Below are positions 10,022 to 61,014 of a DNA stretch of 64,000 nucleotides, piece after piece. A program made the position numbers and the translations under genes. The notes beneath the pieces were generated by a model, which was given only the letters and a program-made list of their open reading frames with translations, was not told where the DNA came from and made no database searches. Origin of the DNA: Bdellovibrionales bacterium (GTDB lineage: Bacteria; Bdellovibrionota; Bdellovibrionia; Bdellovibrionales; CAYMLA01); assembly GCA_965217115.1 (NCBI GenBank), contig OZ244239.1, positions 902,392-966,391 on the forward strand, given 5' to 3'. Position 1 is the stretch's first letter; each line of letters opens with the position of its first letter.

Positions 10022-11092
10022 TCAGATCAAGAGCTCTGGACGTCCTTCATATTTAGACGTCAATTGACCACAGGCTGCATAAATATCTCTACCCATGGTT
10101 TTACGTAAAAGAACATGAACTCCATTGTCCATTAATTCCTCGCGAAAGCGTTCCACCTGCCCATTGCTCGGTCGAACATAATCAGCATCCTCATGCTCAT
10201 TAAAGGGAATTATGTTCACCTTGCAGGGAATTGATTTAGCTATTTCAGCTAAACGTCTAGCGTCAGCAAGAGAGTCTGTCACTCCTTTAAGTAATACATA
10301 CTCAACAGTCACCTTGTCCTTTGTGATTCTTGCGTGTTTTCGACAGGCCTCTAACAATTGTTCAATGGAGTGCTTTTTATTGATCGGCATAATCTCAGAA
10401 CGAACGGCGTTGGAGCTACCATTGAGTGAAACAGCCAAACGCACTCTGGCTTGAGTGACCAATGGAATTTGCTCCACCAGACCAGAAGTTGATACTGTGA
10501 TCTTCTTTCTTGATATATTCATCCCCCAAGGAGAGTGTAAAACTTCAATCGCTTTAAATACAGCTTCGGGATTATCAAGTGGCTCCCCCATTCCCATAAA
10601 AACAATATTCGTAATACGCTGACCCTCTTCTATAAGATTAGAAGCCCCAACAAACTGCCCGACAATTTCTCTGGCACTTAACCGTTTCTTTAGTTTTCTT
10701 TTGCCCGTAAAACAAAACTTACAACCAAGATTACAACCAACCTCCGATGACACACACAAAGTCAAACGCCCATCAGAAGGAATTAAAACAGCCTCGACCG
10801 TCATTGCTACTTGACGATCATCAATCACTTCGCTGACATCAAAAAGAAACTTCTGTGTCCCATCCACACTGATTTTATGTTCCACAACTTTAGGCAAAGA
10901 AAAATTTAGCAACTGAGGCAACTCTTCGCGAAATTTTTTTGAAAGGTTCGTCATTTGCTCAACGTCAGTCACTCCTTTTTCATAAACCCATTTAAAAATC
11001 TGCTGAGCACGAAACTTGGCCTTACCCAAAATCTCCAATCGACTTTGTAAATCATCCAAACTCAAATCATAAAAATAACTCTTTTCCTTCAA
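10022..11092 (-). CDS. rlmN: 23S rRNA/tRNA (adenine-C2)-methyltransferase, radical SAM
   Basis: 356 aa. Has 'RAQQIFKWVY', the radical-SAM cluster 'CNLGCKFCFTG', 'MGMGEPL' and C-terminal 'AACGQL'. Confidence 0.92.
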   Translation of the reverse strand: MKEKSYFYDLSLDDLQSRLEILGKAKFRAQQIFKWVYEKGVTDVEQMTNLSKKFREELPQLLNFSLPKVVEHKISVDGTQKFLFDVSEVIDDRQVAMTVEAVLIPSDGRLTLCVSSEVGCNLGCKFCFTGKRKLKKRLSAREIVGQFVGASNLIEEGQRITNIVFMGMGEPLDNPEAVFKAIEVLHSPWGMNISRKKITVSTSGLVEQIPLVTQARVRLAVSLNGSSNAVRSEIMPINKKHSIEQLLEACRKHARITKDKVTVEYVLLKGVTDSLADARRLAEIAKSIPCKVNIIPFNEHEDADYVRPSNGQVERFREELMDNGVHVLLRKTMGRDIYAACGQLTSKYEGRPELLI

Positions 11093-11195
11093 TCAGCCCT
11101 CCACCAAAGCCCTCTCCTTCTACCACAAACACCAAAATATCTCACCAAAACCCCCTTTAATAATCCATTCTAATCATTTTTTAAGAATTTATTTC

Positions 11196-11248
11196 ACACC
11201 CCCCTCCGTTATTCCCTCCGTTATTCCCCCCGTTGTTCCCAGTCCCCG
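11196..11248 (+). repeat. C-rich 11-12-nt tandem motif (CCCYCCGTTRTT)n preceding hairpin copy A
   Basis: 'cccctccgttatt ccctccgttatt ccccccgttgtt cccagtccccg' read directly from the sequence. Confidence 0.8.
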
Positions 11249-11264
11249 CAAGTTTTCAAATAAA

Positions 11265-11377
11265 TGGTTCAAAGGGTCTTTCATCTTCAAGCGAGTTCGG
11301 ATTGGTGCGCCGCTCGCAAAGCGAGCCGCGCTGCCGAACGAATGTCTGAGCTTGAAGATGGAAGACCCTTTGAACCA
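11265..11377 (+). repeat. GC-rich 113-bp imperfect palindrome, family H, copy A
   Basis: 'tggttcaaagggtctttcatcttcaagc...gcttgaagatggaagaccctttgaacca' around the core 'cgccgctcgcaaagcgagccgcg'. In this copy the palindrome extends into the flanks (aaataaa / tttattt). Confidence 0.9.
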
Positions 11378-11448
11378 TTTATTTCAGACCCAGCTCCCCA
11401 AAACCCATGTTATAGAGAACCATCTTATACAATTCTACTGGGAGAAAT

Positions 11449-11523
11449 AAAGCCCTAGGTAAATAATCAGCCTCTAGCCGACAAGGCTAAGATTTGACGA
11501 CGTACAAAATAAATTATTCCATT
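11449..11523 (+). repeat. 75-bp repeat Q, copy 1
   Basis: 'aagccctaggtaaataatcagcctctagccgacaaggctaagatttgacgacgtacaaaataaattattccatt' is near-identical to 13441-13514. It abuts the LysR stop codon. Confidence 0.85.
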
Positions 11524-12388
11524 ATTCAAGTGAACGTAGACATTTGGCAACTTTTTTCATTTCTGAGCTTTCTGTAGATGATTTTGACTTAACAATATAA
11601 ACATCTCTTTTGATGGGCTTAAAGCCACTTGGGAAATTTTTCTGATATAGCTTATAATCATCTTTAACAATTTGATTGTGAATTTTGGCAATAAAATTTG
11701 GAAGATAAATAACACATAATCCACTCCTTGAAAGTTCTATTGCACTTTCGAGAGTATCAACTCTATGTTGAATTAAGCGTGGAAACTCATGCTCCGGCCA
11801 ACCATCAAGCCCTTTGACACCTGACGGAGCCCCTTTTATTGGTTGTATGGGAGCTACAAAAGGTATTTCCTGAAAATTTAAATTATTAAAAGAACCTTTT
11901 GTTCCGTAAATTGACATTTGAACTTTTGAAATTTTTAAAAAATCTACCCCAGGAGTTGGGATAGGCTCATATGTTATTCCAAAATCTACTATCTTTTTTG
12001 CAACAAATTCTTCTAATTCTCCCTGTCTGGTTTCATAGAGATCTAATTTATAAGTTTCCAACAATGGCTTCAACTTCTTTAAAAAATACGTGCTAAAGAC
12101 CTCAAATGTTGCTATTTTAATATTACTTGATTCAGCTTTTTTATTTATTACACTTAAATCTTCTATTTGATTGATGATGTTCTTAGCTCTCTTATAAATA
12201 ACTACTGCTTCATTGGAGGGCACTATACCTCGGCCTTCGGGTAAAAATAGTTCAAAACCCAGTTCTTCTTCTAATACTTTCAGTGACTTAGACAGCGCAC
12301 CATGGCTCATTCCTATTAGATCAGCGGCACTTCTTAACCCACCAGTTTCAACAACCGTACAAAATTGCTTAAGCCTATTGGTCTCCAT
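11522..12388 (-). CDS. LysR-family transcriptional regulator
   Basis: The HTH 'LKQFCTVVETGGLRSAADLIGMSHGALSKSLKVLEEELG' begins right after the Met at 12388. The upstream 80 codons of the ORF-track call are hydrophobic read-through and were trimmed. Divergent from 12493 (+). Confidence 0.85.
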   Translation of the reverse strand: METNRLKQFCTVVETGGLRSAADLIGMSHGALSKSLKVLEEELGFELFLPEGRGIVPSNEAVVIYKRAKNIINQIEDLSVINKKAESSNIKIATFEVFSTYFLKKLKPLLETYKLDLYETRQGELEEFVAKKIVDFGITYEPIPTPGVDFLKISKVQMSIYGTKGSFNNLNFQEIPFVAPIQPIKGAPSGVKGLDGWPEHEFPRLIQHRVDTLESAIELSRSGLCVIYLPNFIAKIHNQIVKDDYKLYQKNFPSGFKPIKRDVYIVKSKSSTESSEMKKVAKCLRSLE

Positions 12389-12436
12389 ATAGAAACAGAT
12401 ATATAAAATAATTCGATATACGGCAACAATAAAAAT

Positions 12437-12446
12437 GAATATATTC
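12437..12446. promoter_or_regulatory. Perfect 10-bp palindrome GAATATATTC in the LysR/divergent-gene intergenic region (candidate operator)
   Basis: Read directly from the sequence. Its position between divergent starts (12388 and 12493) fits LysR autoregulation. No experimental support. Confidence 0.2.
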
Positions 12447-12492
12447 CGACCTTCTTGAGAAATCAATAAAGGTCTAAAACCGAGGAGGAGAT

Positions 12493-12858
12493 ATGAAAAC
12501 AATAATTTTATTATGTTTATTGATAGGGTCACAGCATATTTTTGCTGCCAGTTGTGACATTGAAAAAGGGCACTACTTAATATTAAAGGTTGATCAACTA
12601 AAGGTAAAAGTAGATTCTTGTGACCCAACTCCAGGGTGGGGCCAGGGAAGAGCTCATTTTGCTACATTTGATAAAAATGATTTAGCTCGAGCAAAGCGAG
12701 AACTACTTACCAAGCATCACCCCCTGATACCTGACCGTTGTCAATTACTAGGAACAGGTGATATTGAAATTATAAGTAATCGTAGTCTTTGTAGCTTCTC
12801 AGGGGTAGACGAAGCAACAGCAAATTTCACCGTAAGATATAAGTGTCACTTATTCTGA
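12493..12858 (+). CDS. Small secreted protein, unknown function
   Basis: 121 aa. SD 'gaggagg' lies 4 nt upstream. Signal peptide 'MKTIILLCLLIGSQHIFA', five Cys. Confidence 0.6.
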   Translation: MKTIILLCLLIGSQHIFAASCDIEKGHYLILKVDQLKVKVDSCDPTPGWGQGRAHFATFDKNDLARAKRELLTKHHPLIPDRCQLLGTGDIEIISNRSLCSFSGVDEATANFTVRYKCHLF

Positions 12859-12939
12859 TTTAATGTAACTGTTCCTTTAATTCTGTGCAGAGGACGGTAT
12901 GCTAATAAATGTATTTAATAGAGTTAAGGGAAGTGAGAC

Positions 12940-13449
12940 ATGTTATCAAATTTTAAGTTAATTGAATTTTCATCAATAATGTTACTTATTCTAGGTAGTC
13001 TCTCTTTTGCAGGAGTTAAAAACGAAGAGGTTATCTATAAAAAATTGATTCTCAAAGCCAGTAAAGAACAGATTTGGTCTACATTGACTGATCAAAATGA
13101 ACTGGGCAAATGGTGGAATAAAGGAGTCAGACTTGAACCATATGTCGGTGGACAATTCTATGAACCTTGGGGAGAGGGGCAATTAGCCACTGGGAAAGTA
13201 GTAGATTTAAAATTTCAAAAGTTTATAAAGTTTACTTGGAAAGAGAAGTATTGGAATTCTTCTGAAAGTACAGTTTGTACATTTTTTCTAGAGAAAGTAG
13301 AAAAAGGGACGGTCTTAAAAATTCATCATTCTGGCTGGGAGTCTATTAAAGAATTAAGTAAAAGAAAAAAACTAATTGAAGGATTTCAGAAGGGCTGGGA
13401 CCTTCTTTTACCAAAATTGAAGAAATATGTTGAATCGGAAAAGCCCTAG
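12940..13449 (+). CDS. SRPBCC-superfamily (AHSA1/START-like) protein with N-terminal signal/anchor
   Basis: 'ILKASKEQIWSTLTDQNELGKWW...GG.F...W' is typical of the Aha1-like SRPBCC family. The stop codon lies inside repeat Q copy 2. Confidence 0.75.
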   Translation: MLSNFKLIEFSSIMLLILGSLSFAGVKNEEVIYKKLILKASKEQIWSTLTDQNELGKWWNKGVRLEPYVGGQFYEPWGEGQLATGKVVDLKFQKFIKFTWKEKYWNSSESTVCTFFLEKVEKGTVLKIHHSGWESIKELSKRKKLIEGFQKGWDLLLPKLKKYVESEKP

Positions 13450-13514
13450 GTAAATAATCAGGCTCTAGCCGACAAGGCTAAGATTTGACGACGTACAAAA
13501 TAAATTATTCCATT
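13441..13514 (+). repeat. 75-bp repeat Q, copy 2
   Basis: Near-identical to 11449-11523. It spans the SRPBCC stop codon and ends 12 nt before the next gene's ATG. Confidence 0.85.
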
Positions 13515-13526
13515 GGATTATCAGAT

Positions 13527-14117
13527 ATGAATACTAAAAAAGAAAGTTGGAATGATTATTACAAAAAAATAAGCAGAAAACCTCCTAGCCTATTACTTAA
13601 GGTGGCCTTAAATGAGGTTAAGCAGATTGGTATTGCTTATGACTTAGGGGCTGGAGCAGGAGTTGACTCAAAATTTCTAGCCAAACAAGGTTGGAATGTT
13701 TTTGCTGTAGATAAAGAACCGTCATCTATTAATTTTATTAGGAAAATCAAAACAGTGAGAGGTGATATTAAACCTGTTTTATCTAACTTTGAAGAATTAA
13801 CTCTTCAAAAAGCCCATCTTATATTTGCATCATTTTCTTTACCGTTTTGTAGCCCGTGTAAATTTCCATTTTTATGGAACAAAATACAATCATCACTGGT
13901 CGGCGGGGGCATATTGGCTGGAACATTGCTTGGAAATAACGATAGTTGGGTCAAAGATTCTAACGGAGGAATGACATTTCAAACAAATAAACAGATTCTC
14001 GATTTATTTGAAGATTATGAAATTTTATATTTCGATGAACAGGAAGAGGATCGTCCAACGGCTCTAGGAAAGCAAAAGCACTGGCATGTATACAGTTTTG
14101 TAGTCCGAAAACACTAG
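13527..14117 (+). CDS. Class I SAM-dependent methyltransferase (TehB-like size)
   Basis: Motif I 'AYDLGAGAGVDSKFLAKQGWNVFAVDKEP'. ATG 13527 is preferred over the TTG at 13485, which lies inside repeat Q. Confidence 0.8.
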   Translation: MNTKKESWNDYYKKISRKPPSLLLKVALNEVKQIGIAYDLGAGAGVDSKFLAKQGWNVFAVDKEPSSINFIRKIKTVRGDIKPVLSNFEELTLQKAHLIFASFSLPFCSPCKFPFLWNKIQSSLVGGGILAGTLLGNNDSWVKDSNGGMTFQTNKQILDLFEDYEILYFDEQEEDRPTALGKQKHWHVYSFVVRKH

Positions 14118-14151
14118 GTTCTGAGGCGAATTAAAAATCACAAAGCTCAGG
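14114..14151 (+). repeat. 38-bp post-ORF repeat S, copy 1
   Basis: 'ctaggttctgaggcgaattaaaaatcacaaagctcagg' includes the stop codon TAG of the methyltransferase gene. It recurs at 16208 and 17059. Confidence 0.85.
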
Positions 14152-14173
14152 CTTTTAAGATGCCTCCCGTAAA

Positions 14174-14230
14174 GAAGATGAAAGCCCCTTTGAACCAACC
14201 TTATCTACCAAAAGTTAAGTCCTCTCTTTA
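14174..14230 (+). repeat. Truncated H (right arm only) plus tail T
   Basis: 'gaagatgaaagcccctttgaacca' followed by 'accttatctaccaaaagttaagtcctctcttta'. Confidence 0.85.
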
Positions 14231-14281
14231 ACCCCCGCTGTTCCCCCCGTTGTTCCCAATCCCCGCTGTTCCCAGTCCACG
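14231..14281 (+). repeat. C-rich 11-12-nt tandem motif (CCCCCGYTGTT)n
   Basis: 'acccccgctgtt ccccccgttgtt cccaatccccgctgtt cccagtccacg'. Confidence 0.8.
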
Positions 14282-14297
14282 CAAGTTTTCAAATAAA

Positions 14298-14410
14298 TAG
14301 TTCAAAGGGTCTTTTATCTTCAAGCGAGTTCGGATTGGTGCGCCGCTCGCAAAGCGAGCTGCGCTGCCGAACGAATGTCTGAGCTTGAAGATGAAAGCCC
14401 CTTTGAACCA
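14298..14410 (+). repeat. H palindromic repeat, copy B (followed by tail T at 14411-14445)
   Basis: Same 113-bp sequence as copy A with a few substitutions. Preceded by 'caagttttcaaataaa'. Confidence 0.9.
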
Positions 14411-14467
14411 CGCCTTATTTGCCAAAAGTTAAGTTCTCTATTTAGTCCCCAACCTCTCAGCCAAAGC

Positions 14468-14560
14468 CTCTTTTTAAAACTCTAAATTGACAATCTACGC
14501 AAGGGGTTAGACACCTCAAAAACTCTCAGGCATCGATAAATTGATGTCTAAGCTATTTTC
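14468..14560 (+). repeat. ~95-bp repeat U, copy 1
   Basis: 'ctttttaaaactctaaattgacaatctacgcaaggggttagacacctcaaaaactctcagg...' is about 80% identical by eye to 15417-15510. Confidence 0.75.
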
Positions 14561-14675
14561 TCCATGGCATAGAATATGCTGTCTAAAGTCTTGAAATTAA
14601 TGGTATCAGTCTGATTTAGGAGAATTAAATGAAAAAATTATTATTTTTAACAACTATTATTTTGAGGGTATGCCT

Positions 14676-14948
14676 GTGAGATTAGTAAGAACTATCACTA
14701 TCGCTTTAAGTATTTTTTTGAGCTTTGCTGTGTTAGCAAGCGACTATGAGTGTTCAGGATTATTTATGAAGTGCTCTGAAGGAGAAGAAATACATCACCT
14801 TACTAGATTGTCAGAATCTGAATGTAGTGGATCATATGAGGGATGTAGGCAGTACTTAAAAAACGAATTAAAGAACTTACGGAAAGTAAAAAAAACTGAA
14901 GTGTTTTGCTATTTCGATGAATACCGTAACGAAGCTATCTGTTTATAA
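14676..14948 (+). CDS. Small Cys-rich secreted protein, unknown function
   Basis: Signal peptide '(M)RLVRTITIALSIFLSFAVLA' and 7 Cys in the mature part. GTG 14676 has SD 'gaggg' 7 nt upstream. An in-frame ATG at 14670 is the alternative start. Confidence 0.5.
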   Translation: MRLVRTITIALSIFLSFAVLASDYECSGLFMKCSEGEEIHHLTRLSESECSGSYEGCRQYLKNELKNLRKVKKTEVFCYFDEYRNEAICL

Positions 14949-15001
14949 CTAGATTAGTAAAGATGGTTTAAGATGTAAAATACACTCAGCAGGAATACTC
15001 T

Positions 15002-15026
15002 CTGCAAAGATAAGAGTTCTTTGCAG
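15002..15026 (+). terminator. Stem-loop downstream of the 14948 stop (8-bp stem CTGCAAAG / CTTTGCAG, 9-nt loop)
   Basis: Read directly from the sequence. No immediate U-tract follows, so terminator function is uncertain. Confidence 0.3.
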
Positions 15027-15093
15027 CAGCTTGAACAAAGAAATTTCTTTTTCACCTAAGGTTTCTTCTAAAACATGATCCAAAATATACGAG

Positions 15094-15172
15094 CCAAACG
15101 AATGCCTGAGCTTAAAGATGAAAGCCCCTTTGAACCAACCTTATCTACCAAAAGTTAAGTTCTCTATTTAGT
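15094..15172 (+). repeat. Truncated H (right ~44 bp) plus tail T
   Basis: 'ccaaacgaatgcctgagcttaaagatgaaagcccctttgaacca' + 'accttatctaccaaaagttaagttctctatttagtcc'. Confidence 0.85.
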
Positions 15173-15251
15173 CCTTAAGATCCCACCAAACAAGGCACAC
15201 ACCCCGCCCCTTGCCCCCGCTGTTCCCAGTCCCCGCAAGTTTTCAAATAAA

Positions 15252-15364
15252 TGGTTCAAAGGGTCTTTTATCTTCAAGCGAGTTCGGATTGGTGCGCCGC
15301 TCGCAAAGCGAGCCGCGCTGCCGAACGAATGTCTGAGCTTGAAGATGGAAGACCCTTTGAACCA
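15252..15364 (+). repeat. H palindromic repeat, copy C (tail T at 15365-15398)
   Basis: Near-identical to copies A, D and E. Preceded by the C-rich motif and 'caagttttcaaataaa'. Confidence 0.9.
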
Positions 15365-15416
15365 GCCTTACCTACCAAAAGTTAAGTCCTCTCTTTAGTC
15401 TGCTGCCCCAGAAAAA

Positions 15417-15510
15417 ACTCTTTTTAAAACTCTAAACTGACAATCTGTGCAAGGGATTAGACACCTCAGAAAAGCTCAGTTACCGATAGATTTATGTCTG
15501 AGCTGTTTTT
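15417..15510 (+). repeat. ~95-bp repeat U, copy 2
   Basis: 'ctttttaaaactctaaactgacaatctgtgcaagggattagacacctcagaaaagctcag...' parallels 14468-14560. A degenerate Q-like stretch follows at 15531-15570. Confidence 0.75.
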
Positions 15511-15765
15511 TCGATGAGCGGTAAATAATTGATCCCCAGCCAACAGGACTAGAATATCATAGCGAGGCCACTGGAAAGTGGTCTTTTTCCTTTGGGGCCG
15601 GAAAACGTCACTTCTAAAAGCAATCCCCGAAAAAATTGAAAAATTTACATCACTCGATGATTTTCCCCTTAAAAGTGCACGAATCAGTTATAATAATTCA
15701 AACAATATCAATCAAATTTAAGAGAATTTGTCCCCCAAGGAAATAGAACGATATCAAGAGGAGAA

Positions 15766-16176
15766 ATGATGAAAAAAATATTAATTGGTTTAACTCTTTT
15801 AATGTCCGTTACAGTTTTTGCTGAGAAAAGGATTATCACCTGCTCAAATACGGCTATCACAGTTCATTCGGAGAATATTATCGGAGGGGAATTCACTGTG
15901 ACGCCTTCTAAAGGAATTCAGCATAAACTAACTATCAAATTGGAAGGAGGAGCAGATTCAATTTTTTGGGCTACTTCAGACACTTCTCAAGAACAACTTT
16001 TTGCTGGAGGCATCATGCATAATGCCAGTAGCTTAACCATGTTTCCTGGCGGTAATAAAGCAATGTTGTCCTTCGAAGGCGATATTTATCCTTTGGTGTG
16101 TGATAAAAAATGGAGTACTGAGTTGAGTAAATGGCTTGAAGAATGGCACCAAAGGGAGAAAAGGTGGTCTTGGTAG
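15766..16176 (+). CDS. Secreted protein, unknown function
   Basis: 136 aa. SD 'agaggag' upstream. Signal peptide 'MMKKILIGLTLLMSVTVFA'. Confidence 0.55.
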   Translation: MMKKILIGLTLLMSVTVFAEKRIITCSNTAITVHSENIIGGEFTVTPSKGIQHKLTIKLEGGADSIFWATSDTSQEQLFAGGIMHNASSLTMFPGGNKAMLSFEGDIYPLVCDKKWSTELSKWLEEWHQREKRWSW

Positions 16177-16207
16177 TAAACTCATTAACTAGACAGATTT
16201 TTTTTCA

Positions 16208-16245
16208 CTAGGTTCTGAGGCTAATTAAAAATCACAAAACTCAGG
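16208..16245 (+). repeat. Post-ORF repeat S, copy 2 (no H follows)
   Basis: 'ctaggttctgaggctaattaaaaatcacaaaactcagg'. Confidence 0.8.
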
Positions 16246-16299
16246 AACTCTAAACGAATCGAACAAATAAACCATTAGTTTATCGAGGATAGAAAGACT

Positions 16300-17058
16300 T
16301 TGAGATTACTTTTAATATTGTTTTTTTCTGCATTTATATTTAGTGATACCTCTTGGGCTTCTTCTTCATGTGCAGACTTTCTCGGGAGTTCATTCAGAAG
16401 TGAAAGTCGTGTTATTACGACCGATACAATAGTTAAAAAAAGTGATGCTCCCATCTTAATGAAAGATATTTTAGGTTTTGTATATTACACTAAATTAAAT
16501 TGGAAAAATTTTATATCTAAACATCGAAGAAAGGTTCGTTTATATGATACTGATTGGAGCAGAGAGAATTTCCTTAAGGAACAATTACTCTTACCTAAAG
16601 ACTTAAAGCCTGATGAGCGAAAGATTATCTTAAAAATAAAGAGAGAGACATCACCGGAATCAAAACATTATAAAAAGGCGCAAGAATTAGAAGGGACTCC
16701 AGATATTATTGGAGTTGAGTCTGCTATTTTGAAAATTAAACTTAAAAGCAACGACATTTATTATGCTGAACACACTTCAAATAGAGAGACATCAATAAAA
16801 GTTCAAGATATTCTTTCAGCATTATCTGGAATAGGAAGAAAAAAGAATTTCTCGCCAAATGATATTGCAGAATTACACTTTTTCCATAATCATCCAGGAA
16901 TAACTCAACCTATCTCAAAGCCTGATGTGGGAGTTGCCAAGAAATTTGTAAAAATTTTTGGTGATAATAATCCCGATTTTAAATTTCACATGTATGCAAT
17001 TAGTTTTGAAAATAGTCTTCGTCCAACACTTATCTTTCATGCTGGGTTTCAGAATTGA
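16300..17058 (+). CDS. Secreted protein with a JAB/MPN+ (JAMM) metalloprotease motif
   Basis: TTG start with 'gagga' 10 nt upstream. Signal peptide 'MRLLLILFFSAFIFSDTSWA'. 'HFFHNHPGITQPISKPD' matches H-x-H-x7-S-x2-D exactly, with a candidate upstream Glu in 'YYAEHTS'. Confidence 0.6.
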   Translation: MRLLLILFFSAFIFSDTSWASSSCADFLGSSFRSESRVITTDTIVKKSDAPILMKDILGFVYYTKLNWKNFISKHRRKVRLYDTDWSRENFLKEQLLLPKDLKPDERKIILKIKRETSPESKHYKKAQELEGTPDIIGVESAILKIKLKSNDIYYAEHTSNRETSIKVQDILSALSGIGRKKNFSPNDIAELHFFHNHPGITQPISKPDVGVAKKFVKIFGDNNPDFKFHMYAISFENSLRPTLIFHAGFQN

Positions 17059-17096
17059 CTAGGTTCTGAGGCGAATTAAAAATCACAAAGCTCAGG
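17059..17096 (+). repeat. Post-ORF repeat S, copy 3
   Basis: Identical to copy 1. Starts immediately after the TGA stop at 17056-17058. Confidence 0.85.
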
Positions 17097-17118
17097 CTTT
17101 TAAGATGCCTCCCGCAAA

Positions 17119-17166
17119 GAAGATGAAAGCCCCCTTTGAACCAACCTTATCTACCAAAAGTTAAGT
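17119..17166 (+). repeat. Truncated H (right arm) plus tail T
   Basis: 'gaagatgaaagccccctttgaacca' + 'accttatctaccaaaagttaagtc'. Confidence 0.85.
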
Positions 17167-17230
17167 CCGTTGTTCCCCCGCTGTTCCCCATTGTCCCCCC
17201 CCCTGTTCCCCCCGCTGTTCCCAGTCCCCG
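17167..17230 (+). repeat. C-rich 11-12-nt tandem motif, longest array
   Basis: 'cgttgtt cccccgctgtt ccccattgt ccccccccctgtt ccccccgctgtt cccagtccccg'. Confidence 0.8.
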
Positions 17231-17246
17231 CAAGTTTTCAAATAAA

Positions 17247-17359
17247 TGGTTCAAAGGGTCTTTTATCTTCAAGCGAGTTCGGATTGGTGCGCCGCTCGCA
17301 AAGCGAGCCGCGCTGCCGAACGAATGTCTGAGCTTGAAGATGGAAGACCCTTTGAACCA
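17247..17359 (+). repeat. H palindromic repeat, copy D (tail T at 17360-17392)
   Basis: Full 113-bp copy, in tandem with copy E about 215 bp downstream. Confidence 0.9.
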
Positions 17360-17461
17360 GCCTTATCTACCAAAAGTTAAGTCCTCTATATAGGCCTTAA
17401 GCCCCCCACCGAACACCCCATACCTTCGCTGTTCCCAGTCCACGCAAGTTTTCAAATAAAA

Positions 17462-17574
17462 TGGTTCAAAGGGTCTTTCATCTTCAAGCGAGTTCGGATT
17501 GGTGCGCCGCTCGCAAAGCGAGCTGCGCTGCCGAACGAATGTCTGAGCTTGAAGATGGAAGACCCTTTGAACCA
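17462..17574 (+). repeat. H palindromic repeat, copy E (tail T overlaps the hldA-like stop codon)
   Basis: Full copy. The tail 'gccttatctgccagaagttaagttctctatgtagg' at 17575-17608 contains the TAA stop (17578-17580, minus strand) of the neighbouring gene. Confidence 0.9.
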
Positions 17575-17577
17575 GCC

Positions 17578-18618
17578 TTATCTGCCAGAAGTTAAGTTCT
17601 CTATGTAGGCCTTAAGCCCCCCCCCCGAACAAGGTACACACCCCACCTTACCCACAACAAACCCCGCTGCAAAATTAGACAAAACACAGGAATCTAATAG
17701 TGACAATTGAGCTGCCTTTGCTAACGCTAAAGTTGCTACCACAGTATCCCCCGCCCCCGTCACATCAAAAACCTGACGGGCATAGGTGGGAACAATGTTC
17801 ACTTGTTCTGCGCTGTAAAGAACCATTCCTTCACTTCCCCGAGTTAAAACCAATTCATCGGCGCCTATTTTATCACGAATTCTCTGTCCTAAATTTAAAA
17901 TAGCCTGCTCATCTTGCCAACAACGATCAAAAGATTCTCCCAAAAGAGTTAAACTCTCCTCAAAATTGGGCTTAAATAGATTCGCCCCGCGATAAAAATC
18001 CAGGGGAGTCTCTCGATGGGGGTCAATTAAAACTTGCTTAGAAGATGACTTGGCAATGAGCAAAATTTCTTGAATCAAAGTCTCATTCAACAGTCCTTTG
18101 GCGTAATCCTGTAAAACAACCGCTTGGCACTGATCAATATTATCCTTGATCACTTGCAATATCTTCCTATGAACACTCTCACTGATATCCTGACGACGCT
18201 CATAATCAACGCGCACAATGTGATTATGACCTGTCATAACTCGAGCTTTACGTGTCGTTGGACGGCAGGAGTCTTCCACAAGATATTGACCTTCAATTCC
18301 CTCTCTCTCTAAAATATCACGTAACTTATCAGCTCCTTGGTCCTTTCCAATCACTGAAACAAGAATAGGATAACCCCCCAAACCGACAATATTATGAGCT
18401 ACATTGGCCGCCATCCCCAGACGAGTATCTTCTTTTTTAACCTCTAGAACTGGCACTGGAGCTTCTGGGCTAATTCTGCGCACATCACCAGTGATATATT
18501 CATCCAACCCACAATCACCTACCACTAAGATTCTCTTATCTGACAGAGTTTCAACTTGTTGTAAGAGCTTCGGTAAAAGTTCTTTACCTGGAATAGAGCT
18601 TTGAAAGGGCTTTAACAT
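17578..18618 (-). CDS. hldA: D-glycero-beta-D-manno-heptose-7-phosphate kinase (RfaE domain I type, PfkB family)
   Basis: 'ILVVGDCGLDEYITGDVRRISPEAPVPVL' is the RfaE-kinase hallmark, and 'DVTGAGDTVVATLA' is the PfkB motif. The last ~22 codons are encoded by repeat-related sequence. Confidence 0.85.
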   Translation of the reverse strand: MLKPFQSSIPGKELLPKLLQQVETLSDKRILVVGDCGLDEYITGDVRRISPEAPVPVLEVKKEDTRLGMAANVAHNIVGLGGYPILVSVIGKDQGADKLRDILEREGIEGQYLVEDSCRPTTRKARVMTGHNHIVRVDYERRQDISESVHRKILQVIKDNIDQCQAVVLQDYAKGLLNETLIQEILLIAKSSSKQVLIDPHRETPLDFYRGANLFKPNFEESLTLLGESFDRCWQDEQAILNLGQRIRDKIGADELVLTRGSEGMVLYSAEQVNIVPTYARQVFDVTGAGDTVVATLALAKAAQLSLLDSCVLSNFAAGFVVGKVGCVPCSGGGLKAYIENLTSGR

Positions 18619-32466: not shown

Positions 32467-33627
32467 TTATCGCACTATTCCTTGCTCCCCATGACTCCCT
32501 CCACCGTCACCCTGTGAATCTTTTTTTGGATGCTTCTTAGCAATCGCCTGTTGCACCTTTTCCTCACAAGTTTGATTATAATCGCCCATTATTTTAGCTG
32601 ATTTCTTAGACTGGAAGTTCTGCAAAGCTCCCTCGCAACAATCAGCAATGAGTGTTGTGAGCCCTTCTTTAAAAAGGGGTTTGAAATTCTTCTCTGCCAA
32701 TGCTTTTACATTAAATTCAACGTGATAGGTGAATGGGCTTTTCCCTAAATCTTTAAAAAAGGCTCCTGAGAAATCACTCTCTTGAACAAACCTAGGGTGT
32801 TCTTTGTCGGTTTTAGCAAATAAACCCTTTTCGTCCAGTTCCCTAAGACCATCCCCTGCAAATACAAGGATTTTATCACCACTTGATATATTTTTTATTC
32901 TTGGAAAACTAAAATCTCCATCTTTGATCCCTAAGGTGTACTTCTTGCCCCCTACTGTTATATCAGAAAATGATCGACCCTTCTTATCCCTGCGACAGGT
33001 AAATTCTGTTGGATTTAAAGACTCCAACAACCTTTCATCCGCGGAATCAACATTCTTGTATATAGTCATGCCTACCCAAGTTATACCAGCAATGACTCCA
33101 TTAATGGCAATTGAAATTGGCAACATATTAGCAGTTGTGATAACAATACCAACAGCATGGGCTTTAGGCGCTATTAATGATAAGAACACAGACGGTGATT
33201 TACTTGGTTTTTGATAGAGTTTATTTATCGCTGTGTAAAGGGAGCGAAAACTCCTATGGGAGGTCGCATTTAACTCTTTGCCATTAATAAGGAACTTTCC
33301 CTCAATGGCTTTTTGAAAACCGACGTTGACCTTCTCGCCACCCACCCTCATCACCAGATCATTGCCACTCACGGAGAGTTTTATCTTTTGGGATTTAGGT
33401 GTTTGCTCTATCAGATCTTGGATGAACTTCCTGTCGTCTTTCAACTTCAATATCTTCTTTAAACCAACGAACATCTCCCGCGCATGGACGCCATGGATCT
33501 GTTCATAGGCTCGACCCATTAACTCTTGATTCACATCACTCAAAGGAGTCCCAAACACGACGGGTGAAAAAAGCAAGCCCACCATAGATGTAAAAAAAAC
33601 TGACATCAGTAAAACCATTCTCTTCAT
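32467..33627 (-). CDS. Secreted paralogue 1 of a tandem four-gene family (unknown function)
   Basis: SD 'ggaagg' 6 nt before ATG 33627. Signal peptide 'MKRMVLLMSVFFTSMVGLLFSPVVFG'. Has the conserved N-domain, a unique hydrophobic segment (about 33040-33153) and a Cys-containing C-domain. Confidence 0.75.
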   Translation of the reverse strand: MKRMVLLMSVFFTSMVGLLFSPVVFGTPLSDVNQELMGRAYEQIHGVHAREMFVGLKKILKLKDDRKFIQDLIEQTPKSQKIKLSVSGNDLVMRVGGEKVNVGFQKAIEGKFLINGKELNATSHRSFRSLYTAINKLYQKPSKSPSVFLSLIAPKAHAVGIVITTANMLPISIAINGVIAGITWVGMTIYKNVDSADERLLESLNPTEFTCRRDKKGRSFSDITVGGKKYTLGIKDGDFSFPRIKNISSGDKILVFAGDGLRELDEKGLFAKTDKEHPRFVQESDFSGAFFKDLGKSPFTYHVEFNVKALAEKNFKPLFKEGLTTLIADCCEGALQNFQSKKSAKIMGDYNQTCEEKVQQAIAKKHPKKDSQGDGGGSHGEQGIVR

Positions 33628-33672
33628 CAGAAACCTTCCATTCAAATTCAATGGGTTTTTCATGTGCTGCTC

Positions 33673-34845
33673 TTATTTCACTGTTGTTCTATTATTAGTC
33701 GTTCCATCATCACCTGATGAATCTTTTTTTGGATGCTTTTTAGCAATCGCCTGTTGCACCTTTTCCTCACAAGTTCGACTCCTAGCGCCCATCGTTCCAT
33801 ATGATCTCTTATTAAATTGGAAGTTCTCCAAAGCTCCATCGCAACAATCAGCAATGGCTGTGAGCCCTACTCTTAAAAAAGGCTTGAAATTTTTCTCTGC
33901 CAATTTTTTTAACCCACGTTTATCACCTTGATAAAAGCGGCTGCTTTTATAGTCTCTAAAAACAGCTTTTGAGAAATCACTCGCCTGAACAGATTTAGGG
34001 TATGGCTCGGTTCTAATAACTGAACCCCTTCTGTACCGTCCCCTAAAACCATCATTTGCAAATATAATCTCTCTTTTATGCCCATCAGCCTTACCAACTG
34101 ATATGCTTTTTATTCTTGGACGATTAAACGCTCCATCTCTGATCTTTAAGGTGTACTTCTTGCCCCCTACTGTTATATCAGAAAATGACTGATCATCCTT
34201 ATCCCTGCGACAACTAAATTCCGTTGGATCTAAAGATTGCAGCAGCCTTTCATCCATAGGAGTGCCTCCAAGATTCGTATCTGACCCTAGAAAATCTATA
34301 CCATTAAGAATTGAGGGTATAAGAATTACAGGAGTCATTGCAGCAATAGCAGAAGTAGCTATCAAACCAAGAGCATAGGCTTTAGGCGCTATTAACGATA
34401 AAAACACAGACGGTGATTTACTTGGCTTTTGATAGAGTTTATTTATCGCCGTGTAAAGAGACCGAAAACTCCTATGGGAGGTCACATTTAACTCTTTGCC
34501 ATTAATAAGGAACTTTCCCTCGATGGCTTTTTGAAAGCCAACGTTGATCTTCTCTCCCCCCACACTCATCACCAGATCATTGCCACTCACGGAGAGTTTT
34601 ATCTTTTGGGATTTAGGTGTTTGCTCTATCAGCTCTTGGATGAATTTCCTGTCGTCTTTCAACTTCAATATCTTCTTTAAACCAACGAACATCTCCCGCG
34701 CATGGACGCCATGGATCTGTTCATAGGCTCGACCCATTAACTCTTGATTCACATCACTCAAAGGAGTCCCAAACACGACTGGTGAAAAAAGCAAACTCAC
34801 CATAGATGTAAAAAAAACTGACATCAGTAAAACCATTCTCTTCAT
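33673..34845 (-). CDS. Secreted paralogue 2
   Basis: Same architecture as paralogue 1. Start ATG 34845 after 'aaggaaggtctgtg'. Unique segment at about 34255-34374. Confidence 0.75.
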   Translation of the reverse strand: MKRMVLLMSVFFTSMVSLLFSPVVFGTPLSDVNQELMGRAYEQIHGVHAREMFVGLKKILKLKDDRKFIQELIEQTPKSQKIKLSVSGNDLVMSVGGEKINVGFQKAIEGKFLINGKELNVTSHRSFRSLYTAINKLYQKPSKSPSVFLSLIAPKAYALGLIATSAIAAMTPVILIPSILNGIDFLGSDTNLGGTPMDERLLQSLDPTEFSCRRDKDDQSFSDITVGGKKYTLKIRDGAFNRPRIKSISVGKADGHKREIIFANDGFRGRYRRGSVIRTEPYPKSVQASDFSKAVFRDYKSSRFYQGDKRGLKKLAEKNFKPFLRVGLTAIADCCDGALENFQFNKRSYGTMGARSRTCEEKVQQAIAKKHPKKDSSGDDGTTNNRTTVK

Positions 34846-34889
34846 CACAGACCTTCCTTTCAAATTCAATGATTTTTCATGTGCTGCTC

Positions 34890-36071
34890 TTAGTGCACTG
34901 CCGGAGTATCCCTAAAACGCACTCCACCGTTATCTTGTGAATCTTTTTTTGGATGCTTTTTAGCAATCGCCTGTTGCAGCTTTTCCTCACAAGTTCGACT
35001 CCTAGCGCCCATCGTTCCATATGATCTCTTATTAGATTGGAAGTTCTCCAAAGCTCCCTCGCAACAATCAGCAATGGCTGTGAGCCCTACTTTTAAAAAA
35101 GGCTTGAAATTTTTCTCTGCCAATTTTTTTAACCCACGTTTATCACCTTGATAAAAGCGGCTGCTTTTATAGTCTCTAAAAACAGCTTTTGAGAAATCAC
35201 TCTCCTGAACAGGTTCAGGGCGGTATGGCTCGGTTCTAATAAAAAGTAAACCATTTCTGTACCGTCCCCTAAAACCATCATTTGCAAATATAATCTCTTT
35301 TTTATGCCCATCAGCCTTACCAATTGATATACTTTTTATTCTTGGGCGATTAAACGCTCCATCTCTGATCTTTAAGGTGTACTTCTTGCCACCCACTGTT
35401 ATATCAGAAAATGGTTGATCATCCTTATCCCTGCGACAACTAAATTCCGTTGGATCTAAAGATTGCAACAGCCTTTCATCCATAGGAGTGCTTCCAAGAT
35501 TCGTATCTGCCCTTAGAAAATCCAGAACAGTCCAAATTGTGGGAGCAACAATTGCACCAAGCATTGCACCAATACCAACACTAGCTATCAAACCAACAGC
35601 ATGGGCTTTAGGCGCTATTAATGATAAAAACACAGACGGTGATTTACTTGGTTTTTGATAGAGTTTGTTTATCGCCGTGTAAAGGGACCGGAAACTCCTA
35701 TGGGAGGTCGCATTTAACTCTTTGCCATTAATAAGGAACTTTCCCTCAATGGCTTTTTGAAACCCGACGTTGATCTTCTCGCCACCCACCCTCATCACCA
35801 GATCATTGCCACTCACGGAGAGTTTTATCTTATGGGATTTAGGTGTTTGCTCTATCAGCCCTTGGATGAATTTCCTGTCGTCTTTCAACTTCAATATCTT
35901 CTTTAAACCAACGAACATCTCCCGCGCATGGACGCCATGGATCTGTTCATAGGCTCGACCCATTAACTCTTGATTCACATCACTCAAAGGAGTCCCAAAT
36001 ACGACTGGTGAAAAAAGCAAGCCCACCATAGATGTAAAAAAAACTGACATCAGTAAAACCATTCTCTTCAT
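34890..36071 (-). CDS. Secreted paralogue 3
   Basis: Same architecture. The C-domain is about 90% identical to paralogue 2 by eye. Unique segment at about 35481-35597. Confidence 0.75.
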   Translation of the reverse strand: MKRMVLLMSVFFTSMVGLLFSPVVFGTPLSDVNQELMGRAYEQIHGVHAREMFVGLKKILKLKDDRKFIQGLIEQTPKSHKIKLSVSGNDLVMRVGGEKINVGFQKAIEGKFLINGKELNATSHRSFRSLYTAINKLYQKPSKSPSVFLSLIAPKAHAVGLIASVGIGAMLGAIVAPTIWTVLDFLRADTNLGSTPMDERLLQSLDPTEFSCRRDKDDQPFSDITVGGKKYTLKIRDGAFNRPRIKSISIGKADGHKKEIIFANDGFRGRYRNGLLFIRTEPYRPEPVQESDFSKAVFRDYKSSRFYQGDKRGLKKLAEKNFKPFLKVGLTAIADCCEGALENFQSNKRSYGTMGARSRTCEEKLQQAIAKKHPKKDSQDNGGVRFRDTPAVH

Positions 36072-36166
36072 CATAGACCTTCCTTTCAAATTCAATGATT
36101 TTTCATGTGCTGTTCTTAACCAATACTCTTTAAGCAGAGAAATGCTAAATTTTAAACACCTCTCTC

Positions 36167-37336
36167 TTATCGCACTATCTGACTATCCTTACCAGACACT
36201 CCACCGTCACTCTGTGAATCTTTTTTTGGATGCTTTTTAGCAATTGCCTGTTGCACCTTTTCCTCACAATTTCGCTTATCAGCGCCCATCGTTCCATATG
36301 AGATCTTAGCCTGGAATTTCTGCAAAGCTCCCTCGCAACAATCAGCAATGGCTGTGAGCCCTGCTTTTAAAAAAAGTTTGAAATTCTTCTCTGCCAATGG
36401 TCTTACCGTGTCTGAATCTTTTTCGTAAAAGCGCCTGCTTTTATGGTCTCTAAAAACAGCTTTTGAGAAATCACTCGCTTGAACAGACCCAGGGGTTCCT
36501 GTGTCCTCTCTAAAAATGGTACCATTTTTGTACAGTCCCCTAAAACCATCATTTGCAAATGTCATCGTTTTTTTATCCCCATCATCCTTACCAACTGATA
36601 TACTTTTTATTCTTGGAAAACTAAACGCTCCATCTCTGATCTCTAAGGTGTACTTCTTGCCCCCTACTGTTATATCAGAAAATGATTGCCCCTTCTTCCT
36701 GCGACAACCAAAGTCCGTTGGATTTAAAGACTGCAACAAGCTTTCATCCGCACCAATAGCTCCAAAACCAATACCCATCTTTGTAGATATAAAGTCATTA
36801 GAAAACGCAACAGCGGTAGCAACTCCTGCTGCTGCTGCTGCTGCTACACCCAACATAACACCAGCATGGGCCTTAGGCACTATTAATGATAAAAACACAG
36901 ACGGTGATTTACTTGGTTTTTGATAGAGTTTGTCTATCGCCGTGTAAAGGGACCGGAAACTCCTATGGGAGGTCGCATTTAACTCTTTGCCATTAATAAG
37001 GAACTTTCCCTCAATGGCTTTTTGAAACCCGACGTTGATCTTCTCGCCACCCACCCTCATCACCAGATCATTGCCACTCACGGAGAGTTTTATCTTATGG
37101 GATTTAGGTGTTTGCTCTATCAGCCCTTGGATGAATTTCCTGTCGTCTTTCAACTTCAATATCTTCTTTAAACCAACGAACATCTCCCGCGCATGGACGC
37201 CATGGATCTGTTCATAGGCTCGACCCATTAACTCTTGATTCACATCACTCAAAGGAGTCCCAAACACGACTGGTGAAAAAAGCAAGCTCACCATAGATGT
37301 AAAAAAAACTGACATCAGTAAAACCATTCTCTTCAT
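36167..37336 (-). CDS. Secreted paralogue 4
   Basis: Same architecture. The unique segment at about 36746-36862 includes a (GCA)6 Ala6 run at 36827-36844. Confidence 0.75.
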   Translation of the reverse strand: MKRMVLLMSVFFTSMVSLLFSPVVFGTPLSDVNQELMGRAYEQIHGVHAREMFVGLKKILKLKDDRKFIQGLIEQTPKSHKIKLSVSGNDLVMRVGGEKINVGFQKAIEGKFLINGKELNATSHRSFRSLYTAIDKLYQKPSKSPSVFLSLIVPKAHAGVMLGVAAAAAAGVATAVAFSNDFISTKMGIGFGAIGADESLLQSLNPTDFGCRRKKGQSFSDITVGGKKYTLEIRDGAFSFPRIKSISVGKDDGDKKTMTFANDGFRGLYKNGTIFREDTGTPGSVQASDFSKAVFRDHKSRRFYEKDSDTVRPLAEKNFKLFLKAGLTAIADCCEGALQKFQAKISYGTMGADKRNCEEKVQQAIAKKHPKKDSQSDGGVSGKDSQIVR

Positions 37337-37526
37337 CACAGACCTTCCTTTACAAGAACTCTTTAAAATTCACCACTGACATAGTGTATAACACTCCAAT
37401 CCCGGGTCCTAGTTCCATTCCTCATTTCCATTTTAATTCTTGGCTTAAGACTGGAAGTGAACTAGACCTTTGTGTTATGTAAATTTCTTAAGATCTCTTG
37501 CAAAAAAAACCCGAAATCGCCCGATC

Positions 37527-59180: not shown

Positions 59181-60257
59181 TTACCTCAACTTTAATGTAC
59201 TAATGCTTAAAATAGCTAACAATATAGAAACAATCCAAAAACGGATAATAATCTTTGATTCATCTAGCCCCTTCAATTCAAAATGATGATGGATAGGAGC
59301 CATCTTAAAAACCCTCTTTCCTGTCAGTTTAAAAGAAATCACCTGAGTGATCACCGACAGAGCTTCAACAACAAAAATTCCTCCAAGTAAAACCAAAAGC
59401 AATTCATTCTTACTCAAAATAGCCATAATTCCCAGAAAACCACCCAAGCTGAGACTTCCTACATCACCCATAAAAACTTGAGCTGGATAAGAATTAAACC
59501 AAAGAAATCCCAGCCCTGCAGCGACAACCGTTGCACAAAAAGGCGCCAATTCACCAGCACCTGCTACATACGGGATCTGTAAGTACTCAGCTAAAATAAA
59601 ATGCCCAGCAACATAAGCAAACAAAGCAAACGTTCCCGCGCAAACTATCACTGGGAAAATTGCCAAACCGTCCAACCCATCAGTCAAATTAACACTATTG
59701 GCACAACCCACAACCACAAAGGTCGCAAAAGGAATATAAAGAACCCCTAAATCAAACACTAGATTTTTAAAAAATGGCACATGAAGCTCAGTGGAAAATT
59801 CACAAAAATAAACCAGATAAGAAACAACCAATCCACTGATTAGAAACTCCACTAGTAAGCGAATTCTACCTGAGAGTCCTTTACTTCCTTTTTGCTGAAC
59901 TTTCATCGAATCATCAATATAACCAATCACTCCAAAACTAAAAGTGACTATCAGAGCTGCCCACACCAAGGGGTTAAAGAGATCCATCCACATCAAACAA
60001 GGAATTAGCACACTTAGTAAAATTAAACCTCCACCCATCGTGGGAGTTCCTGTCTTCTTTAAATGTGACTCGGGCCCATCATCGCGGATAGTTTGCTTCA
60101 TTTGCTTGCGAACCAAACGACGAATAAAACGAGGACCCGACAACCAAATAAGAAAAAAAGCCGTAAAAAAAGAAATGAACGTACGGAAAGTAATATATCG
60201 AAAAATATTAAAGCCAGATATCTGCTCCGACAAAGAATAGAGCCACTGATACAACAT
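59181..60257 (-). CDS. mraY: Phospho-N-acetylmuramoyl-pentapeptide transferase
   Basis: 'GTPTMGG', '[13 protein letters not shown]' and 'MAPIHHHFE'. Confidence 0.96.
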
Positions 60258-61012: not shown

Positions 61013-61014
61013 CC

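Follow-up and report, generated by a model that had tools for sequence, protein, structure and literature searches.

Repeated copies of the hldA 3' end and of a 113-nt hairpin at the module boundaries of an island between hldA and rlmN in a Bdellovibrionales genome: a candidate site of serial insertion

Results

The hldA-rlmN Locus

The DNA analyzed here, herein referred to as the window, is a stretch of 64,000 nucleotides (nt) from a Bdellovibrionales bacterium (assembly GCA_965217115.1, contig OZ244239.1, positions 902,392 to 966,391 of the forward strand). It contains the gene hldA, encoding D-glycero-β-D-manno-heptose-7-phosphate kinase, and an insertion between hldA and its neighbor rlmN, herein referred to as the island. 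Copies of the hldA 3' end, each adjoining an arm of a 113-nt hairpin, are found at the boundaries of small gene modules in this island. The main elements of the locus are listed below, with positions counted from the start of the window.

10022-11092, minus strand: rlmN, the direct neighbor after hldA in relatives (Pfam RlmN_N and Radical_SAM, synteny)
11093-17577, no strand: the entire insertion between rlmN and hldA, 6.5 kb (empty sites in the related loci L001 and L002)
17578-18618, minus strand: hldA, intact, 346 aa (TIGR02198, PfkB domain, orthologue alignment)
17575-17680, minus strand: hldA 3' tail, judged native (about the last 34 codons and the stop codon), the gene-proximal copy of the repeated tail

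The Island and Empty Sites in Relatives

The two closest relatives, L001 and L002, have the gene order dihydroorotate (DHO) dehydrogenase, gdh, divergent hldA, and rlmN. The gap between hldA and rlmN is 78 bp in L001 and 42 bp in L002 vs 6.5 kb here, and the empty alleles foreseen by an initial annotation of this DNA do therefore occur. The hldA-rlmN order is kept in all 12 Bdellovibrionales loci examined, with a gap of 30-210 bp in 8 loci and of about 1-1.4 kb in 4. The GC content of the island genes is 0.31-0.38 vs 0.40-0.49 for the flanks. Synteny and composition support the view that the stretch between rlmN and hldA is acquired foreign DNA splitting an ancestral gene pair. Neither tRNA nor tmRNA genes, as possible targets, were found within the window.

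The hldA-rlmN spacer is also variable across Bdellovibrionales in general. Four lineages hold differing, unrelated small ORFs (open reading frames) for secreted, lipoprotein-like, or membrane proteins, at the loci with the wider spacer:

L003, 2568-3824
L004, 11005-12129
L012, 10984-12341
L013, 11002-11954

The hldA Gene and Its C-Terminus

The minus-strand ORF at 17578-18618 matches the TIGR02198 profile (rfaE_dom_I) with 346.8 bits at a cut-off of 345, over residues 22-337 of 346 and profile positions 2-312 of 315. By this curated equivalog cut-off, the ORF is identified as the HldA / RfaE domain I kinase. The protein ends in KVGCVPCSGGGLKAYIENLTSGR before the stop codon (also given as GKVGCVPCSGGGLKAYIENLTSGR), and the string quoted in the initial annotation does encode this end.

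The same annotation had claimed that the last 22 or so codons and the stop codon of hldA were supplied by the repeat. These codons lie mostly within the TIGR02198 profile match. The C-terminus GKVGCVPCxxxELxxYIxx is common to all 18 Bdellovibrionota orthologues aligned (47-64% identity), with C330 and L335 invariant and V325, C327, V328, and P329 nearly invariant. The closest relative is L001, the HldA of which is 67% identical by BLASTP and 64% identical in the alignment; its tail has the same length, and both stop codons share one alignment column. Because the orthologues share the motif and the L001 tail matches in length and stop position, the last 22 codons are, on this alignment, a native, orthologous type of hldA end and not new repeat-derived sequence, contrary to that claim. 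With an orthologous C-terminus, the repeats are in turn read as copies of the hldA end, not as its source. Copying from the gene into the repeats and a faithful regenerating copy fit the data equally well.

Nucleotide homology to L001 hldA reaches the stop codon and ends directly after it, which places the breakpoint by orthologue alignment, as the initial annotation had envisaged. Identity to L001 weakens across the final 60 nt, to 13-15/30 from 25-26/30. The C-terminal tail is the most variable part of hldA across all orthologues.

A 10-nt homopolymer (C10 on the plus strand, 17617-17626; GGG GGG GGG codons in hldA) was observed inside the last 20 codons, where the orthologues have xxE. The pseudo-copies described below hold interrupted versions of it (GGTGGGGGG, GGTGGGAT), and C10 is a potential slippage site.

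Copies of the hldA Tail and the Repeat Unit

Tail copies were sought by blastn with the last 156 nt of hldA against the whole window. Six extra non-coding copies were found, all in one polarity and with E-values from 2e-14 to 0.02.

15139-15208, minus strand: copy in half site B2, the longest, extending back into the GKVG codons (72 nt, 83%, E 2e-14)
17360-17415, minus strand: copy T3, with internal deletions (57 nt, 89%, E 4e-13)
14412-14448, minus strand: copy T1 (37 nt, E 4e-7)
14199-14230, minus strand: copy in half site B1 (E 5e-4)
15365-15398, minus strand: copy T2 (E 5e-4)
17145-17166, minus strand: short copy in half site B3 (E 0.02)

Outside 14.2-17.7 kb, no hldA-tail match of E < 0.4 was found in the window. 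Four of these copies had already been reported, with correct coordinates and strings, by the initial annotation; those at 15365-15398 and 17145-17166 were added by blastn. Its assumption that the intergenic strings are homologous to the hldA 3' end holds on formal alignment (E 2e-14 to 5e-4). The strings are degenerate pseudo-copies with deletions and frameshifts.

Every tail copy adjoins an arm of the 113-nt hairpin. Read in the orientation of the gene, the repeat unit (about 215-245 bp) consists of an hldA end of about 100 nt, starting from the AAG codons (CAGCGGGG, part of NFAAGFVVGKVG), the 113-nt hairpin, and a spacer of about 30 nt, TTTATTTGAAAACTTGCGGGGACTGGGAA, after which the next unit restarts at CAGCG (alignment A2). 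Five units contain a full hairpin, and three are present as a tail with the adjoining 24-45 nt of the hairpin; all lie within the 6.5-kb insertion. The two units next to hldA form a 215-nt tandem repeat, the final part of which is the gene's own tail. Tandem Repeats Finder places this repeat at 17213-17631 (1.9 copies, 95% matches), so that it extends into the hldA coding sequence.

Arrays of a short motif, herein referred to as the 12-mer, were found at five places, always directly left of a full hairpin and always on the plus strand:

11206-11240, plus strand: CCGYTGTTCCC 12-mer array
14235-14273, plus strand: further array
15217-15227, plus strand: further array
17167-17222, plus strand: further array
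17426-17436, plus strand: further array

The island contains 12 matches to the motif vs about 1 expected. The 12-mer represents the joint at which the tail start (CCCCGCTG) meets the spacer start (TTCCCAGTCC), in expanded form, the joint being CCCCGCTG followed by TTCCC. A role of CCGYTGTTCCC as an arm-type recombinase binding site was considered and rejected; slippage of the tail-start/spacer joint explains the arrays better.

Hairpins and Half Sites

The hairpin is 113 nt long; its basal stem comprises 28 bp, its interior is partly paired, and its DNA fold has a predicted energy of -43 to -51 kcal/mol (z -8 to -11.5). The arm motif was matched 12 times in the window vs 0.01 expected by chance, always between 11265 and 17574. 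The five full hairpins are pairwise identical at 108-113 of the 113 positions.

17462-17574, no strand: hairpin Hp4, starting 3 nt past the hldA stop codon (folds -46.3 / -44.2 kcal/mol, z -9.4 / -9.6)
17247-17359, no strand: hairpin Hp3, forming with T3 an empty, cargo-free unit (113/113 identical to Hp2)
15252-15398, no strand: hairpin Hp2 (15252-15364) and T2, the rlmN-side boundary of block 3
14298-14448, no strand: hairpin Hp1 (14298-14410) and T1, a hybrid whose tail-side arm has B-type bases
11265-11377, no strand: hairpin Hp0, the rlmN-side end of the island, with a stem 7 bp longer (-51.4 kcal/mol, z -11.5)
17119-17166, minus strand: half site B3 (arm 17119-17143, tail copy 17145-17166), the hldA-side boundary of block 3
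15093-15208, minus strand: half site B2 (45 nt of the hairpin, 15093-15137, and tail copy 15139-15208)
14174-14230, minus strand: half site B1 (arm 14174-14197, tail copy 14199-14230)

Hp4 is identical to Hp0, Hp2, and Hp3 at 111-112 of 113 positions and to Hp1 at 109 of 113. On the gene strand, Hp4 is followed by TTTTATTTG, and the hairpin with TTTTATTT could double as a terminator of hldA transcription. Folding of the half sites is no better than that of shuffled sequences, also when they are considered as hidden hairpins with the D4 module described below (z -0.9 to +1.3).

Alignment A2 separates the sites by diagnostic bases. All three half sites carry the B-type bases (arm GGGGCTTTC, AAGGT), and the full units carry GGGTCTTCC and AAGGC. 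The alignment thus shows two site lineages, A and B, and one hybrid, Hp1. Such a hybrid would be expected from recombination between two kinds of partner site.

Three further observations concern the hairpins. A 45-aa plus-strand ORF starting from an ATG in the hairpin was rejected as a gene: it has no ribosome-binding site, the ATG is lost in Hp1, and the differences between copies alter amino acids. The rlmN-side unit (12-mers, spacer, and Hp0) lies between the two copies of a 10-bp direct repeat, ATTTATTTCA, at about 11184-11193 and about 11378-11387; the right-hand copy extends the Hp0 stem by 7 bp, and the repeat could be a target duplication or a coincidence in AT-rich DNA. The tail-side hairpin arm at 17553-17574 resembles the native spacer downstream of L001 hldA (11071-11093) at the same 9-nt offset from the stop codon (AAAGGGTC..TTyCAyCTTmAA). 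This match is weak, with 44 of 2000 shuffles scoring equally, and it is a lead only, not a result.

Cargo Blocks

The genes of the island form three blocks, accompanied by two shared non-coding modules.

11522-14117: block 1, with a LysR regulator (11522-12388, minus strand), the secreted protein o121 (12493-12858), an AHSA1/SRPBCC protein (12940-13449), and a TehB-like methyltransferase (13485-14117) (Pfam, NCBIfam; GC 0.32-0.38)
14670-14948, plus strand: block 2, with o92, a small cysteine-rich protein of 92 aa with a signal-peptide-like N-terminus
15766-17058, plus strand: block 3, with o136 (15766-16176, 136 aa, a secreted orphan ORF) and o252 (16300-17058, 252 aa, secreted)
14104-14173, plus strand: D4 module with the core CTAGGTTCTGAGGCKAATTAAAAATCACAAA, placed immediately behind ORF stop codons, with further copies beginning at 16198 and 17049
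14463-14566, plus strand: D5 module upstream of o92; the second copy, at 15413-15516 upstream of o136, is 83% identical

The cargo ORFs are mutually unrelated, and all have one orientation except the LysR gene of block 1. The possibility that they are paralogues arising from module duplication was accordingly rejected. Despite their unrelated ORFs, the blocks share the non-coding D4 and D5 modules; D4 has 3 matches vs 0 expected.

No family match at the curated cut-off was found for o92 in Pfam, NCBIfam, or PHROG, and o136 and o252 have no match in the same three databases. No homologue of o136 was found. The o252 protein has a signal peptide and a JAMM-like HxHx7SxxD motif (HNHPGITQPISKPD). 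Its single homologue among 5.8 billion proteins (77% aa and 82.6% nt identity) is encoded in another assembly (L117, 10001-10933), between pgpA and cinA-recA, with none of the repeats there. Homology to L117 stops at the ORF borders. This match is far closer than that of the best hldA orthologue (67%), which points to horizontal movement of the cargo.

A short ORF at 14629-14679, encoding MKKLLFLTTIILRVCL before its stop codon, overlaps the start of o92 and resembles a frameshifted signal peptide.

Organization of the Array

In the orientation of the gene, the array starts with two cargo-free units adjoining hldA (hldA tail, Hp4, and spacer; tail, Hp3, and spacer). These are followed by B3, block 3, tail, Hp2, and spacer; by B2, block 2, tail, Hp1, and spacer; and by B1, block 1, Hp0, spacer, and a partial tail start, after which rlmN begins. 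For blocks 2 and 3, the hldA-side boundary is a half site and the rlmN-side boundary a tail with a full hairpin; both blocks are thus flanked by direct repeats of the tail and arm in one polarity. Block 1 has half site B1 on its hldA side and Hp0 on its rlmN side, with a tail copy on the hldA side only.

Searches for the Repeat Elsewhere

The exact hairpin pattern had no match in the genome or metagenome contig collections, and a looser stem-only pattern had none in viral contigs. The 34 metagenome matches to the looser pattern were rejected on inspection as unrelated GGTTCAANGG arrays or gut palindromes. Two kinds of element were seen in these metagenome loci, L084-L116, both unrelated to the island: 9-10-mers of the GGTTCAANGG type in inverted arrays, and a palindrome that recurs in gut metagenomes (GGTTCAAAGGGTTGTGGTATCGCCC...). 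No match of the island was found in plasmids and phages, and no meaningful match of the repeat modules in 117 related loci (1.54 Mb). Rfam yielded no match at E ≤ 1 over 10.9-18 kb.

Other Observations in the Window

Four tandem paralogous ORFs of about 390-401 aa, with 69-88% mutual identity and no Pfam match, were found on the minus strand at 32467-37339:

32467-33663, minus strand: first paralogue
33673-34869, minus strand: second paralogue
34890-36095, minus strand: third paralogue
36167-37339, minus strand: fourth paralogue

A scramblase-family ORF (60359-61051, minus strand; PF03803, E 7e-43) is located in a cell-wall/division cluster, between a Mur ligase gene (61015-62424) and a mraY-like Glycos_transf_4 gene (59181-60257).

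Discussion

Proposed Serial Insertion behind hldA

The favored explanation, to which we give about an even chance, is that small integrase-less modules were inserted one after another, by Campbell-type recombination, at a site that overlaps the hldA 3' end and the hairpin arm, akin to the accretion of cis-mobilizable elements (CIMEs). A circular DNA with a copy of the site would recombine, Campbell-fashion, with the chromosomal site overlapping the hldA 3' end, and an intact hldA end would be kept at each insertion. Several rounds would produce tandem accretion, and the two cargo-free units would be excision scars or unoccupied sites. The recombination would be site-specific rather than RecA-dependent, and the recombinase, whatever its identity, would act in trans from elsewhere in the genome or would have been lost, leaving CIME-like modules. 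The direct repeats of the tail and arm around blocks 2 and 3 are the product expected from Campbell recombination at the hldA 3' end. This explanation also agrees with an intact hldA that has a family-typical C-terminus, with tail copies confined to the island, with the empty sites in relatives, with the A-type and B-type sites and their hybrid, and with unrelated, low-GC cargo whose blocks share D4 and D5 and which includes o252 with its close homologue at another locus.

Several results weigh against it. Domain searches of all window ORFs of at least 110 aa, and of the 92-aa island ORF o92, revealed no recombinase of the tyrosine or serine type, no transposase, and no HUH enzyme, in the island or elsewhere in the window. 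The modules, at about 1-3 kb, are far below the size of typical ICE (integrative and conjugative element), IME (integrative and mobilizable element), or CIME remnants. Hp0, at the rlmN-side end, is not joined to a tail copy, and no displaced native gene end could be recognized there. B1 and B3 share D4 and may copy one junction instead of representing independent events; the number of independent events is therefore small. The hldA-tail duplication was not found in the relatives, including the four with other spacer ORFs, and no second genome with the hairpin or the repeat was found in the collections searched. The proposal of the initial annotation that the hldA 3' end is the attachment site of the island thus stands as far as anatomy (module boundaries, one polarity) and synteny go; it goes beyond the evidence in taking the repeats for an integrase att site, with no recombinase in the 64 kb.

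CIMEs lack an integrase by definition. Tandem accretion of such elements with ICEs and IMEs at a gene 3' end has been described, for example, for the ICESt1/ICESt3-related elements at fda in Streptococcus thermophilus (PMC5704250). The present array resembles these in the insertion directly behind an intact gene, in the direct repeats of the gene 3' end at the seams of blocks 2 and 3, and in tandem modules of foreign composition that encode no integrase. It differs in the size of its modules (about 1-3 kb), in the lack of a partner element or integrase in the window, and in its long repeat (60-245 bp), which includes the 113-nt hairpin.

Possible Local Amplification and Possible Regeneration of the Tail

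Tandem duplication of the hldA 3' end and the hairpin by slippage or unequal crossing-over, with no dedicated recombinase, is a serious alternative that we regard as possible, if less probable than serial insertion. Foreign DNA would later have been spliced into some of the units by homology-facilitated or illegitimate recombination, for instance after DNA uptake, and the repeats would be portable homology only. The 215-nt tandem repeat at 95% identity agrees with such a history, and the 96-100% identity of the hairpins fits recent duplication or gene conversion. The same tail-start/spacer joint, grown into the 12-mer microsatellite, is present in every unit, which suggests that one original junction was copied, and B1 and B3 with their common D4 could likewise be one duplicated junction. 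The failure to find a recombinase in the window also favors this alternative. However, each of the three cargo blocks is bounded by a half site toward hldA and by a full hairpin toward rlmN, and blocks 2 and 3 have the same tail polarity on both sides. The consistent A-type and B-type bases fit two lineages of partner sites better than random splicing. Flanking repeats share at most about 18 nt of uninterrupted identity, a short stretch for RecA-dependent exchange.

A sub-variant of serial insertion, rather than an exclusive rival to it, is that the present hldA tail is a regenerating copy brought by the latest insertion and not the ancestral one. We consider this doubtful. The hldA tail does lie in the terminal repeat copy, and its nucleotide sequence does match L001 less well in the final 60 nt, but such a drop is expected anyway, since no other part varies as much across the orthologues as the C-terminal tail. 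The tail agrees with that of L001 in length and stop position, the motif CVPC...L..YI is kept, and no displaced original tail is recognizable at the rlmN end.

Cassette-Type and Palindromic Alternatives

A more far-reaching interpretation, which we think improbable, is that the locus is an undescribed cassette-capture platform of a Bdellovibrionota lineage. The hldA tail and hairpin would be a docking site unrelated to attC, attI, and dif, the recombinase would be encoded elsewhere, and the whole would be an integron analogue for small cassettes that mostly encode secreted proteins.

It is very unlikely that the array is a true integron derivative, namely a CALIN (an attC cluster without an integrase), in which the hairpins would serve as attC-type sites and recombine in folded, single-stranded form. 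The attC sites span 57-141 nt, and the 113-nt hairpins fall in this range. As in integron arrays and CALINs, small cassettes with mostly orphan genes are ordered in one orientation, bar the block 1 LysR gene, with structured repeats of about 100 nt between them, and GTTAAGT in the tail fits GTTRRRY. Nevertheless, the stem base 5'-GGTTC...GAACC-3' is the reverse of R'' (RYYYAAC)...R' (GTTRRRY), the GTTAAGT is separated from the stem by 16 unpaired nt and has no upstream AAC partner, and the 28-bp basal duplex has no bulged bases. Judged on geometry and folding, the arrangement that defines attC, with R''/R' boxes closing an imperfect hairpin that has extrahelical bases, is lacking, the half sites do not fold, and no intI was found in the 64 kb. 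Unlike in integron arrays, the cassettes here share promoter-side (D5) and 3' (D4) modules, and the repeats copy the end of a housekeeping gene.

Xer-dependent modules, such as the integrative mobile elements exploiting Xer (IMEX) and the pdif modules of Acinetobacter plasmids, are small, have no recombinase of their own, and use the host enzyme in trans on short repeated sites. The island has small gene modules without a recombinase in common with them. It differs in that its repeats are direct rather than alternating inverted, and no dif-like 28-mer was found within 3 mismatches of DBBBCSBATAATRTAYATTATGTHAANT, a consensus of proteobacterial type that may not be that of the host.

Least probable of all is a self-mobile palindromic element spreading locally with flanking DNA, such as a miniature inverted-repeat transposable element (MITE), a repetitive extragenic palindrome (REP), or a palindrome-associated transposable element (PATE), or else an assembly artefact. 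A near-perfect 113-nt palindrome in many copies and the 10-bp direct repeat ATTTATTTCA around the Hp0 unit would suit a mobile palindrome, but all eight copies are confined to 6.5 kb, the remaining 57 kb of the window being free of them. The genome, metagenome, viral, plasmid, and phage collections yielded no copy, and neither did 1.5 Mb of related loci; a transposase of the HUH or DDE type was not found in the window. The distinct substitutions and indels of the copies argue against a simple collapse or expansion in the assembly.

Implications

The pattern is a variant of a well-known insertion footprint, observed at one locus of one genome, and its value is that of a lead, not of a discovery. 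For annotation, hldA should be treated as intact, the extra gene ends as pseudo-copies and not genes, and the stretch between rlmN and hldA as acquired DNA. To our knowledge, hldA is not a described integration target. If the site-specific interpretation is true, hldA would be a new integration hotspot, and very small modules without a recombinase could accumulate next to the end of a housekeeping gene in bacteria that are predatory or related to predators, and supply orphan secreted proteins.

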